Shown here: piece by piece, positions 15,981 through 18,683 of the stretch | Layout of the letters: every line of letters begins with the position of its first letter | How positions within the stretch are numbered: the stretch's first letter is position 1 | Source of the DNA: a virus | Lineage: Duplodnaviria; Heunggongvirae; Uroviricota; Caudoviricetes | Virus record (IMG/VR): IMGVR_UViG_2703718816_000002 | Location: 1 to 18,683 of that record | Length of the DNA: 18,683 nucleotides | Reading direction: 5' to 3' (one strand) | Notes under the pieces: model-generated | What the model was told of the DNA's origin: nothing | The model's database searches: none | What the model saw: the letters and a program-made list of their open reading frames with translations, nothing else | Translations under genes and position numbers: made by a program

Positions 15981-16056
15981 GGCCCTTTAGCTCAGTGGTG
16001 AGAGCGAGCGACTCATAATCGCCAGGTCGCTGGTTCAAATCCAGCAAGGGCCACCA
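15981..16056 (+). tRNA. ileZ: tRNA with CAU anticodon (Ile2 lysidine type, ileZ-like, or Met)
   Basis: Acceptor stem GGCCCTT/AAGGGCC, D-arm TAGCTCAGTGGTGAGAGC, anticodon loop CTCATAA (CAT), T-arm GGTTCAAATCC, encoded CCA. Closely resembles E. coli ileX/ileZ as recalled. Confidence 0.85.
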
Positions 16057-16065
16057 TATCAGATA

Positions 16066-16142
16066 CCGCCATTAGCTCATCGGGACAGAGCGCCAGCCTT
16101 CGAAGCTGGCTGCGCGGGGTTCGGGTCCCCGATGGCGGTCCA
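16066..16142 (+). tRNA. argN: tRNA-Arg (anticodon UCG), argN-like
   Basis: Acceptor CCGCCAT/ATGGCGG, D-arm TAGCTCATCGGGACAGAGC, anticodon stem CCAGC/GCTGG with loop CTTCGAA (TCG), T-arm GGTTCGGGTCC, encoded CCA. Confidence 0.8.
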
Positions 16143-16155
16143 TTATTGGTATTCA

Positions 16156-16232
16156 GCGTTGTTAGCTCAGCCGGACAGAGCAATTGCCTTCTAAGCAATC
16201 GGTCACTGGTCCGAATCCAGTACAACGCGCCA
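16156..16232 (+). tRNA. argO: tRNA-Arg (anticodon UCU, reads rare AGA/AGG), argO-like
   Basis: Acceptor GCGTTGT/ACAACGC, D-arm TAGCTCAGCCGGACAGAGC, anticodon stem ATTGC/GCAAT with loop CTTCTAA (TCT), T-arm GGTCCGAATCC, encoded CCA. Confidence 0.85.
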
Positions 16233-16519
16233 CACCACACTTATCTGCCCTGACTCTCTTTTGCGGGCTTTTTATTACAGGAAAGACACCGGACAGTGAA
16301 ATGTTAAATGCCTCACAATTCAGGCAGTTGACTGTTGCCTGACATGCTGAGCGTTTGTTAAAAAAATCCTGCATGATGAATCCCCCTGAGCGGCGGGGCA
16401 TAATGACAGATGTTTGGTTGCGTATTGTATAGGCAAGTTGCGGATTCTGTCTGGTCATTGCAGAATTCACCGGGAGGCACCCGGCATCATGCTGTATACA
16501 GAGATTAGGCATATATCCA

Positions 16520-16545
16520 GGCTCCTCATCGCAGGAGCCTTTTTA
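16520..16545 (+). terminator. Rho-independent terminator in the tRNA-to-nanS-p intergenic region
   Basis: GGCTCCT catcgc AGGAGCC (7-bp stem) followed by TTTTTA. Confidence 0.65.
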
Positions 16546-16550
16546 CATGC

Positions 16551-16575
16551 AAAAAAAGCCCGAGTGGGTTCGGGC
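16551..16575 (-). terminator. candidate opposite-strand terminator, back to back with the previous one
   Basis: Plus strand AAAAAAA GCCCGA gtgggt TCGGGC; on the minus strand this is a 6-bp GC hairpin followed by seven T. Confidence 0.45.
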
Positions 16576-16636
16576 AACAGCATGAGATACTTGCATTGTC
16601 ATTTTTATCGTGTGGATTTTAACCAGGGTTTATAAG

Positions 16637-16665
16637 GCTGCGCAACTGCGCGGCCTTTTTCGTTT
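16637..16665 (+). terminator. Rho-independent terminator upstream of nanS-p
   Basis: GGCTGCGC aact GCGCGGCC (8-bp stem with one G-U pair) followed by TTTTT CG TTTT. Confidence 0.6.
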
Positions 16666-16754
16666 TGCGGGCTGCGGTTCTCCTCTTTTGATTCTCCGTG
16701 TAGCCGGACCGTGGCCCGCAACTGTTGAGGAAAATCCCGGAAAGGGGAGGAATA

Positions 16755-18683
16755 ATGGCATTTAAACACTATGACGTGGTCAGGGCGGCGTCGCCGTCAG
16801 ACCTTGCTGAACGACTGACTCAAAAACTGAGGGAGGGGTGGCAGCCATTTGGCAGTCCTGTCGCCATCACGCCTTATACCCTGATGCAGGCCATTGCGGC
16901 GGAAGGTGATGTCACCACACCTGTGGTGGTGAGGCCGTCGGATGGAGAAGGCACAGTTATCAGCACCACCAGCGAACCGGAGTATTACTTTGTTGTTGTT
17001 CTGGCGGGGCAGTCAAACGGCATGGCGTATGGTGAAGGTCTTCCGCTGCCGGAGACATATGACCGTCCGGACCTGCGTATTAAGCAGCTGGCGCGCCGCA
17101 GCACGGTGACACCGGGCGGTGATGCCTGTGAATACAATGATGTTATTCAGGCAGACCACTGTCTGCATGATGTGCAGGACATGAGCCGGCTGAATCATCC
17201 GAAAGCGGACCTGTCAAAGGGGCAGTACGGTACCGTGGGGCAGGGACTGCATATCGCCAAAAAACTGCTGCCGTTTATACCGGCGAATGCGGGCATTCTT
17301 CTGGTACCGTGCTGCCGTGGTGCTTCGGCATTCACAACGGGTGCAGACGGTTCATTCAGTGAGGCCAGCGGTGCTTCCGCTGATTCTTCACGCTGGGGAG
17401 TCGGTAAACCTCTGTATCAGGACCTGGTAAGCCGTACCAGAGCGGCGCTGGTGAAGAACCCGAAAAACAAACTTCTGGCTGTGGTATGGATGCAGGGGGA
17501 GGCAGACCTTGCTTCAGGAAGTCAGCAGCATAATGCTTTATTCACTGCCATGGTCCAGCAGTTCAGAACCGACCTGTCTTCGCTTGCTGCGCAGTGCGTA
17601 AGTGGAAATGCTGCCACGGTGCCGTGGATTTGTGGTGATACCACGTATTACTGGAAAAACGCTGGCACCGATAAATATGAGGCGGTATACGGTGGCTACA
17701 AAGGCAAGGACGCACAGAATATTTTCTTTGTGCCGTTCCTGACAGATGAGAATGGACAGAACACGCCAACGAATGCTCCGGCGGAAGACCCCGATATTGT
17801 GGCTGTCGGGTATTACGGTGCAGCATCCCGTACCCAGGGCAGTTTTGTCTCCACACAGCGTGACAGCCATTTCAGCTCATGGGCACGCAGGGGGATTATT
17901 TCTGACCGTCTGGCCTCAGCGATTCTTCTCCATGCAGGACGAACGGCTGAACTGGTGGGGGGACAGGTTGTGACGCCGCCGGATGAGAAGCCGTCACCGG
18001 ACACACCATCAACACCGTCAACGGACGGGAAATCAGTGACAACGCTGCTTTCTTACCGTGCAGCAGAGTCAGATGGTTTACTGACTCCGCAGGGATGGGG
18101 AGCTGAAGGAGGGAGTGCAGCGGTAGTTGATGATGCAGGTGCTGCGGGAGGTAAGGCGCTGAGGCTGACCAAACAGGCAGGAAGGTCTTCGTGGTTTATG
18201 CAGCATGATGCCGGTAATGGCGCAGACCTTCTGGAGAAAGGCGGGCTTATCAGCTGTCGTTTTAAAGTTGATGGTGTGCTGTCTGCTAACCGTTATGCAC
18301 TGGCGCTGTACTGGCCGGTTTCTTCATTGCCTCAGGGTGTCACACTGGAAGGTAATGCCGGTAACAATCTGCTGGCGTCGTTTTACGTACAGAGCGATGC
18401 CACAGACCTCAACGTGATGTACCACAAGGGTAACGCTGACCAGAACACGAAGCTGGGGTCATTCGGCGCATTTGACAACGAATGGCATACGCTGGGCTTC
18501 CGTTTTGCCGGTAATAACAGCATTCAGGTGACGCCGGTGATTGATGGTCAGGATGGTGCACCGTTCATGCTGTCGCAGTCTCCGGTAGGTTCTTTTGCGG
18601 CAGACAAATTACGTGTAACGGATATCACAAAAGCGGCGACGTATACGGTGCTGATTGAAAGTATAACAGTGGAAGTGAATAAC
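16755..18683 (+). CDS. nanS-p: NanS-p-like sialate O-acetylesterase (SGNH/SASA-type), 3' end cut by window edge
   Basis: Absent from the ORF track because it has no in-window stop. ATG at 16755 with GGGGAGG 6 nt upstream; 643 codons open to the window end (frame checked by hand at three places). Contains VVLAGQSNGMAYGEG (GQSN esterase motif) and a Thr/Pro/Ser linker before a C-terminal beta-rich region. Matches the stx-adjacent prophage esterase gene of EHEC phages as recalled. Confidence 0.7.
   Translation, partial: MAFKHYDVVRAASPSDLAERLTQKLREGWQPFGSPVAITPYTLMQAIAAEGDVTTPVVVRPSDGEGTVISTTSEPEYYFVVVLAGQSNGMAYGEGLPLPETYDRPDLRIKQLARRSTVTPGGDACEYNDVIQADHCLHDVQDMSRLNHPKADLSKGQYGTVGQGLHIAKKLLPFIPANAGILLVPCCRGASAFTTGADGSFSEASGASADSSRWGVGKPLYQDLVSRTRAALVKNPKNKLLAVVWMQGEADLASGSQQHNALFTAMVQQFRTDLSSLAAQCVSGNAATVPWICGDTTYYWKNAGTDKYEAVYGGYKGKDAQNIFFVPFLTDENGQNTPTNAPAEDPDIVAVGYYGAASRTQGSFVSTQRDSHFSSWARRGIISDRLASAILLHAGRTAELVGGQVVTPPDEKPSPDTPSTPSTDGKSVTTLLSYRAAESDGLLTPQGWGAEGGSAAVVDDAGAAGGKALRLTKQAGRSSWFMQHDAGNGADLLEKGGLISCRFKVDGVLSANRYALALYWPVSSLPQGVTLEGNAGNNLLASFYVQSDATDLNVMYHKGNADQNTKLGSFGAFDNEWHTLGFRFAGNNSIQVTPVIDGQDGAPFMLSQSPVGSFAADKLRVTDITKAATYTVLIESITVEVNN

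Follow-up and report, generated by a model that had tools for sequence, protein, structure and literature searches.

Pairs of convergent genes for Hfq-binding small RNAs (sRNAs) have been described between a moron coding sequence (CDS) and a conserved downstream open reading frame (ORF) in the Sakai prophages Sp3, 4, 9, 10, 11, 15 and 17, and the Shiga toxin (Stx) genes stx2AB of Sp5 are an example of an occupied slot (PMC4104026). At least eight Sakai prophages have such a dyad between late promoter and lysis genes, for reasons that a review calls unknown (PMC7873438). EcOnc03, one of these sRNAs, was detected by Hfq crosslinking and analysis of cDNA (CRAC), by 5′ rapid amplification of cDNA ends (RACE) and on Northern blots (56/54/51 nucleotides (nt)), and is destabilised in an hfq deletion mutant (PMC4104026); for its targets, the supplement of a study that sequenced hybrids after crosslinking and ligation (CLASH) gives a Gene Ontology enrichment for cation/iron transport mRNAs and scattered hybrids with no validated partner (PMC5286369). 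The esterase gene nanS-p is carried by Stx as well as non-Stx prophages, and its induction accompanies that of stx (PMC8065619, PMC10462455). EDL933 has multiple prophage alleles of it and one O104:H4 strain has five, all of them active esterases (PMC8065619, PMC10462455), with Neu5,9Ac2 esterase activity shown for the EDL933 and O104:H4 alleles only (PMC8065619). Both nanS-p and the sRNA dyad of non-Stx prophages are thus already described in the literature. Here we analyse a locus of this kind, in which three tRNA genes, an interval of about half a kilobase and nanS-p follow each other with no toxin genes, in an 18,683-nt stretch of virus DNA (IMG/VR record IMGVR_UViG_2703718816_000002, positions 1 to 18,683), referred to below as the window.

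Our results indicate, with a probability of about 0.9, that the region represents the 'moron zone' in the late operon of a non-Stx lambdoid prophage, a siphovirus of the Sakai Sp9-like type, located beside yecE/yecN in bovine Escherichia coli, and that its stx slot is a widespread empty allele with no deletion scar. The order of features would then be Q, PR′/tR′, three morons including an AraC-type regulator, ileZ-argN-argO, an empty slot of about 37 base pairs (bp), a convergent pair of Hfq-binding sRNA genes, an extra terminator, nanS-p and the lysis genes. This architecture is ordinary and already described; what is of use are corrections concerning the position of Q, the AraC-type moron beside the tRNAs and the EcOnc28/EcOnc03 pair in the interval.

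We determined that positions 15200-18683 of the window are 100% identical to the chromosomes of the bovine-faeces E. coli isolates OkiPb01678 and OkiPb01712 (Okinawa), and that positions 25-18683 match the OkiPb01678 chromosome at 99.95% identity. In the RefSeq record of OkiPb01678, the matching lambdoid prophage adjoins yecN and a DUF72 (yecE-type) gene, and its annotated genes include those for an integrase, a LexA-type repressor, Cro, CII, O, P, two antirepressors, RusA and Q, together with Nin genes. Holin, lysozyme, lysis protein, terminase, HK97-type capsid and long-tail genes lie 3′ of the window in the same record. The layout is that of a lambdoid late region, with Q followed by a PR′/tR′-like unit and with lysis genes downstream in the matching record. 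The features between the tRNA genes and nanS-p are as follows.

15981-16056, plus strand: tRNA-Ile2 (CAU, ileZ type); ARAGORN; Rfam 72.5 bits; RefSeq tRNA-Ile; 76/76 identical to 933W ileZ
16066-16142, plus strand: tRNA-Arg (UCG, argN type); ARAGORN; Rfam 53.1 bits; 75/77 identical to 933W argN
16156-16232, plus strand: tRNA-Arg (UCU, argO type); ARAGORN; Rfam 65.8 bits; 75/77 identical to 933W argO
16276-16312, no strand: unoccupied moron slot; homology gap relative to 933W, where about 1.3 kb with stx2AB sits
16313-16550, plus strand: STnc100-family Hfq-binding sRNA (EcOnc28/EcOnc27 type); Rfam RF02076; terminator at 16519-16540
16551-16610, minus strand: anti-sRNA EcOnc03 (AgvB/AsxR family); Rfam AgvB 56.6 bits (gathering score 56), AsxR 46.8 bits (sub-threshold)
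16634-16657, plus strand: third terminator hairpin, 5′ of nanS-p; 10-bp stem with 7 G-C pairs, then a T-run; -19.5 kcal/mol, z -2.6
16755-18683, plus strand: nanS-p (predicted prophage sialate 9-O-acetylesterase); start at 16755, last sense codon and stop in the 6 nt past the window

The three tandem tRNA genes between Q and the late genes form an ileZ-argN-argO cluster, and ARAGORN and Rfam placed them exactly as the first-pass annotation of the window had, in identity, order and coordinates. The tRNA block shares 95.7% identity with its counterpart in phage 933W, in which ileZ is annotated as a tRNA-Ile reading AUA. Each of the two tRNA-Arg genes carries a T-loop substitution relative to 933W: A58G vs. 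argN in Arg-UCG (TTCGGGT, with a compensating stem change) and U55C vs. argO in Arg-UCU (TCCGAAT). Both substitutions were found only in the window among four aligned loci, at T-loop positions that are normally invariant.

Homology to 933W extends through the tRNAs and the hairpin that follows argO to about position 16275 and is found again from 16313 on, a position that lies 46 nt past the stx2B stop codon in 933W, so that about 1.3 kb of 933W with stx2AB stand against about 37 bp in the window. Homology to an Stx1a phage resumes at 16299, 40 nt past stx1B. A cassette of TerB and DUF3927 genes in an O25:H4 genome (locus L006) falls between window positions 16273 and 16297, and in another genome DUF3927 and IraM genes lie in the same slot; the cargo (TerB with DUF3927, or DUF3927 with IraM) spans 1753-2345 in L006 and 2083-2830 in L007. 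As the slot is filled elsewhere by stx1, stx2, TerB/DUF3927 or IraM cargo, it is a recurrent moron insertion point, and the window holds the unoccupied allele. The same empty junction is colinear and near-identical in phage phi296 and in an O157:H7 non-Stx prophage.

The window and the 43-kb prophage locus were searched for stx1 and stx2, by tblastn for Stx1A/B and Stx2A/B and by blastn for both cassettes; all matches were at chance level, with E>0.1 in the window, in agreement with the earlier reading that toxin genes are absent. Stx-converting phages have stxA-stxB 3′ of Q/PR′; here this position is taken by the 37-bp slot. The first-pass annotation had proposed to look for residual stx promoter or coding fragments in 16233-16754 and to compare the locus with Stx prophages. 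Word-7 blastn and tblastn at E<=10 yielded only chance-level matches to such fragments, and the comparison revealed the 933W-type order of tRNAs, sRNAs and nanS-p around an unoccupied stx2AB slot.

The interval between argO and nanS-p (16233-16754) comprises 522 bp, close to the 520 bp first estimated, and the earlier view that it holds no credible ORF was confirmed, as Pfam at E<=1 matched none of its longest ORFs (116, 73, 54 and 51 amino acids (aa)), and these ORFs overlap structured RNAs. The three terminator hairpins reported for it were all present in a consensus scan (16519-16540 and 16634-16657 on the plus strand, 16575-16558 on the minus strand), yet the interval does not consist of terminators alone but contains two known sRNA genes. 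Two of the hairpins coincide with the sRNA terminators and are therefore the 3′ ends of those RNAs. On the plus strand, the Rfam family RF02076 (STnc100) matches 16342-16550 over the full model (1-206) with 176.7 bits vs. a gathering score of 47, and 62 nt of this RNA (16408-16469) are identical to an EcOnc28 read obtained by RNase E-CLASH from Sakai Sp9. It belongs to the group of EcOnc27/sRNA103 of an Stx2 phage; from the homology boundary and the size of EcOnc27 (235/247 nt) its 5′ end would lie at about 16313.

The minus-strand RNA (16610-16551) reads CGAUAAAAAUGACAAUGCAAGUAUCUCAUGCUGUUGCCCGAACCCACUCGGGCUUUUUUU, which is exactly the EcOnc03 sequence given for Sakai Sp9 in the supplementary material of Tree et al. 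2014 (PMC4104026) and is identical to the EcOnc3 reads in RNase E-CLASH data (PMC5286369). Sp9, with its EcOnc28/EcOnc03 pair, thus shares with the window both the anti-sRNA sequence and the 62-nt stretch of the STnc100-type RNA. The EcOnc03 sequence is also present in one Stx1a phage and in one O157:H7 non-Stx prophage. As in other members of the anti-sRNA family, which are 51-60 nt long, a variable 5′ end precedes about 42 conserved 3′ nucleotides that include the intrinsic terminator (16575-16558), and the RNA has a convergent partner, the STnc100 and AgvB/AsxR matches abutting end to end (16550/16551). AgvB, the anti-GcvB sponge of Sakai Sp10 and Sp17, shares this 3′ part with its terminator, the genomic position and the convergent layout; it differs in carrying the CACAACA motif, the seed target of GcvB R1, in place of which the window has CGAUAAAAAUGACAAUGCAAG vs. 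CGAUAACACAACAAUAUCAG in AgvB. An assignment of the minus-strand RNA to AgvB proper was accordingly rejected, the motif being absent and the sequence being that of EcOnc03, and with CACAACA missing from the 5′ variable region, a GcvB-sponging function is not expected.

The sRNAs keep their place in toxin-bearing relatives. Rfam scans located an STnc100-type RNA directly 3′ of stx2B in 933W, directly 3′ of stx1B in the Stx1a phage and directly 3′ of the empty junction in phi296, and found the convergent anti-sRNA also in 933W and in the Stx1a phage. StxS and HnrS, searched for in the window and in the prophage locus, were found in neither. Upstream of EcOnc03, a -10-like TAAAAT lies at 16616-16621, 5 nt from the mapped 5′ end, and the hairpin at 16634-16657 overlaps the presumed -35 region of the EcOnc03 promoter (16616-16645); this terminator and the EcOnc03 promoter might be coupled.

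To place the window among its relatives, we compared it with the loci that resemble it most. An O157:H7 non-Stx prophage (L005) is 98.3% identical from argO to nanS-p, with the same empty junction and with nanS-p downstream; it differs in having a DNA methyltransferase gene between Q and the tRNAs vs. the membrane protein, small protein and AraC-type genes of the window, in a degraded middle tRNA and in its integration site. Phage 933W and Sakai Sp5 have the same tRNA trio and the same order of STnc100-type RNA, convergent anti-sRNA and nanS-p. They carry stx2AB and EcOnc27/AsxR, whereas the window has EcOnc03, with another 5′ variable region, instead of AsxR; relative to 933W, the window also has a Q from another family, no StxS and, between Q and the tRNAs, three morons, and its prophage has HK97-type long-tail structural genes, while 933W is of the Traversvirus type. 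Phages phi296, phi315 and phi367 (Traversvirus tv86), TL-2011a and PPwrbA share with the window the tRNA trio, the empty junction, the STnc100-type RNA and NanS, and lack stx, but unlike the window they are of the Traversvirus type and have a 933W-type Q, PR′ region and StxS. The central interval of phi296 could be aligned only in part, and the scan found no anti-sRNA there at the Rfam gathering score.

The empty junction is frequent. A 150-nt probe (16196-16345, coverage of at least 80%) detected it in 492 of 5426 complete E. coli genomes, O157:H7 and O103:H2 among them, with 190 records at an identity of at least 99%. A longer probe (651 nt) from argO to the start of nanS-p was colinear in 935 of the 5426 genomes, a count that includes slots with small cassettes. 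The stx-less arrangement also occurs in six phage records, namely phi296, phi315, phi367, TL-2011a and two PPwrbA prophages. Taken with the literature on non-Stx prophages, the tRNA-to-nanS-p arrangement with the same short interval is therefore common in non-Stx lambdoid phages, which is what the first-pass annotation had itself named as speaking against its proposal, and the rarity that it implied does not hold. In lambdoid late regions, a 'missing toxin' pattern is thus the common default state and no sign of toxin loss; in surveillance, the tRNA-nanS-p arrangement must not count as evidence of a former Stx phage. Before a late-region spacer that seems empty is described as non-coding, it should be checked for sRNA genes. 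The finding itself is of little significance, and the biological interest that remains lies in the stable linkage of the sRNA dyad to the slot and in the roles of EcOnc03 and the STnc100-type RNAs.

Descent from an Stx phage, with stxAB lost through deletion or recombination, was one of the origins first suggested; it has some grounds in the kinship of the early regions, as 933W-type Stx2a and Stx1a phages share about 93% identity with the window over 40-48% of its length, and the tRNA block is close to that of 933W. In addition, yecE is a documented integration site of Stx phages (PMC8065619), and loss of stx from enterohaemorrhagic E. coli (EHEC) is documented in the literature (PMC8534868). 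This mosaic kinship and the yecE site make the window a 'relative of Stx phages' in the usual mosaic sense, and in substance the description of an stx-negative relative with an empty site was correct, the stx cassette being cleanly absent. A loss of the toxin genes is nonetheless quite unlikely. Neither the window nor the 43-kb prophage locus holds a remnant of an stx promoter or coding sequence, and the junction is an allele shared, at 98-100% identity, by hundreds of genomes and by O157:H7 non-Stx prophages of the Sp9 type, so that a recent private deletion is excluded. The Q family is unlike that of 933W, and so are the HK97/long-tail morphogenesis genes. With no remnants and a widespread junction allele, nothing was gained in support of an origin by toxin loss; an ancient replacement of the slot by recombination is possible.

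Another way to read the interval is as an inert spacer, whose hairpins merely insulate the tRNAs from nanS-p as terminators and whose Rfam matches are relics with no RNA function. It could draw on the narrow score of the anti-sRNA against AgvB (56.6 bits for a gathering score of 56), on the minimum free energy fold of the 238-nt RNA, which is little better than that of shuffled sequences (z -1.56), and on the fact that sRNA expression in the window strain is predicted from sequence. Against this stand the identity of the anti-sRNA to the experimentally detected EcOnc03 (PMC4104026), the identity of 16408-16469 to EcOnc28 RNase E-CLASH reads, the STnc100 score of 176.7 bits across the full model, and a position of the pair that is conserved in Stx1, Stx2 and non-Stx phages despite diverging flanks. 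Taken together, these make an inert spacer very improbable, and we regard the interval as the site of an sRNA pair next to an empty slot in a non-Stx prophage.

Several points weigh against the main reading, that of a late region in a non-Stx lambdoid prophage. The portal gene is frameshifted in the RefSeq annotation of the prophage (listed with locus L001, 33322-35744), so that formation of viable phage after induction may fail and the prophage may be defective. The substitutions at T-loop positions 55 and 58 make the function of both tRNA-Arg uncertain, and both genes may be decaying. The hairpin after argO, an annotated terminator in 933W, is weak here (z 0.09) and, folding no better than shuffled sequences, was rejected as a terminator of this locus. 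The promoters of the tRNAs and sRNAs are matches at the level of a consensus or were placed by eye, and transcription of both kinds of RNA in the window strain is deduced from the DNA. Finally, the sequence is compatible both with a slot that was never occupied and with one replaced by recombination with an empty allele.

As the slot is flanked by the conserved tRNA trio on one side and by the sRNA pair and nanS-p on the other, and the cassette borders are clustered, the RNA genes may act as recombination anchors. On the right, the stx1, stx2 and TerB/DUF3927 cassettes all end at the presumed 5′ end of the STnc100-type RNA, with borders spread over about 16 bp. One cargo-bearing locus (L006) has two STnc100-type copies on the same strand, 278 nt apart (2411-2616 and 2894-3103), a duplication that points to recombination inside the sRNA gene as the route of cassette exchange. 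We offer only as a tentative and rather doubtful proposal that the RNA genes are homologous-recombination anchors for cassette exchange, that the common empty bovine allele would then stand ready to receive stx or be the state ancestral to its acquisition, and that EcOnc03 may regulate mRNAs of iron/manganese homeostasis and not sponge an sRNA.

Upstream of the tRNAs, the following features were identified.

13093-13764, plus strand: late antiterminator Q; Pfam Phage_antiter_Q PF06323, E 1.4e-92, 309.8 bits; RefSeq 'bacteriophage antitermination protein Q'
13772-13800, plus strand: PR′-like promoter; TTGCAA-17-TATATT, from a consensus scan
13806-13880, plus strand: leader with tR′-like hairpin; 75 nt with two hairpins, -24.1 kcal/mol, z -5.2; U-run after the second
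14018-14731, plus strand: moron CDS of 237 aa; RefSeq CDS, directly 3′ of PR′/tR′; GC content about 0.40
14905-15102, plus strand: small moron CDS; RefSeq CDS; weak TrmB-like match only
15089-15106, plus strand: terminator hairpin; terminator-like site that ends the two-moron segment
15239-15952, plus strand: AraC-type (YdeO/GadX-like) regulator moron of 237 aa; Pfam HTH_AraC and HTH_18

A Q-like gene followed by a short promoter/terminator unit had been placed just before the tRNAs. Such a unit does follow Q (13772-13880), and its position directly after Q suggests that it is PR′/tR′; the gene directly 5′ of the tRNAs, however, is not Q but the AraC-type moron (15239-15952). Q lies 2.2 kb from the tRNAs, and 2.1 kb of low-GC moron genes (three CDS) separate the promoter/terminator unit from them, the GC content in the region 14018-15102 being 0.36-0.42. 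The product of 14018-14731 gave no Pfam or NCBIfam match. For the AraC-type protein, the NCBIfam model YdeO scores 105.7 bits over the full length, which is under the equivalog cut-off, and GadX is aligned too; a promoter-like site with 10/12 matches (15176-15203) is located 5′ of its gene. This moron could be a candidate member of the prophage Psr/PatE group of regulators of acid resistance and the type III secretion system in EHEC.

Codons AUA, AGA and AGG together amount to 42-50 per 1000 in the morons 5′ of the tRNAs (50 in 14018-14731) vs. 8-18 in P, nanS-p and Q, in samples that are small, and this excess fits a decoding role of the tRNAs. From established lambdoid biology and the cited papers, a scheme of regulation can be outlined. 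In the lysogen, transcription from PR′ would stop at tR′, and the morons, the tRNAs and both sRNAs would use their own promoters and terminators, while the convergent sRNA terminators and the hairpin at 16634-16657 would silence nanS-p and the lysis genes. After induction, Q-modified RNA polymerase would pass all terminators, and nanS-p, lysis and structural genes would be expressed. Read-through of this kind into nanS-p agrees with the reported induction of z1466 (nanS-p) along with stx (PMC8065619). The tRNAs would supply AUA and AGA/AGG decoding for the morons rich in rare codons, and the STnc100-type RNA and EcOnc03 would act in trans on host transcripts via Hfq. Stx phages would differ here only in having the slot between argO and the sRNA pair filled by stxAB.

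The gene that closes the window encodes, as had been proposed, a NanS-p-like esterase. The RefSeq CDS has 644 aa, and the protein is 67% identical to L0105 of 933W over its full length, with the GQSN motif aligned. Pfam domains DUF1737 (aa 3-50), SASA (81-277) and DUF6645 (493-610) were found, and the matches in the PDB include NanS (3pt5, E 7.7e-117) and the C-terminal domain of NanS-p (6yp6, E 1e-98). The order of DUF1737, SASA and a lectin-like C-terminal domain, encoded 5′ of the lysis genes in a prophage, is that of the NanS-p family.

Minor observations concern the rest of the window. Its positions 1-24 gave no alignment to the otherwise near-identical OkiPb01678 RefSeq prophage, and the window therefore stems from a slightly different mosaic. 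The poly-G tract at 15136-15145, in the gap between the terminator of the small moron and the promoter of the AraC-type gene, is 4 nt shorter than in OkiPb01678; this sole length difference may reflect a tract of variable length or an error in sequencing a homopolymer. Just 5′ of the antirepressor gene ant (10934-11656), the Rfam families c4-a1b1 (47.7 bits), isrK (73.5 bits) and C4 antisense RNA (78.8 bits) match consecutively at 10698-10899, and this row forms with ant a P1/P7-type c4-ant control module within the lambdoid prophage. The same trio is located 5′ of ant in phage phi296 (L004, 48-243).

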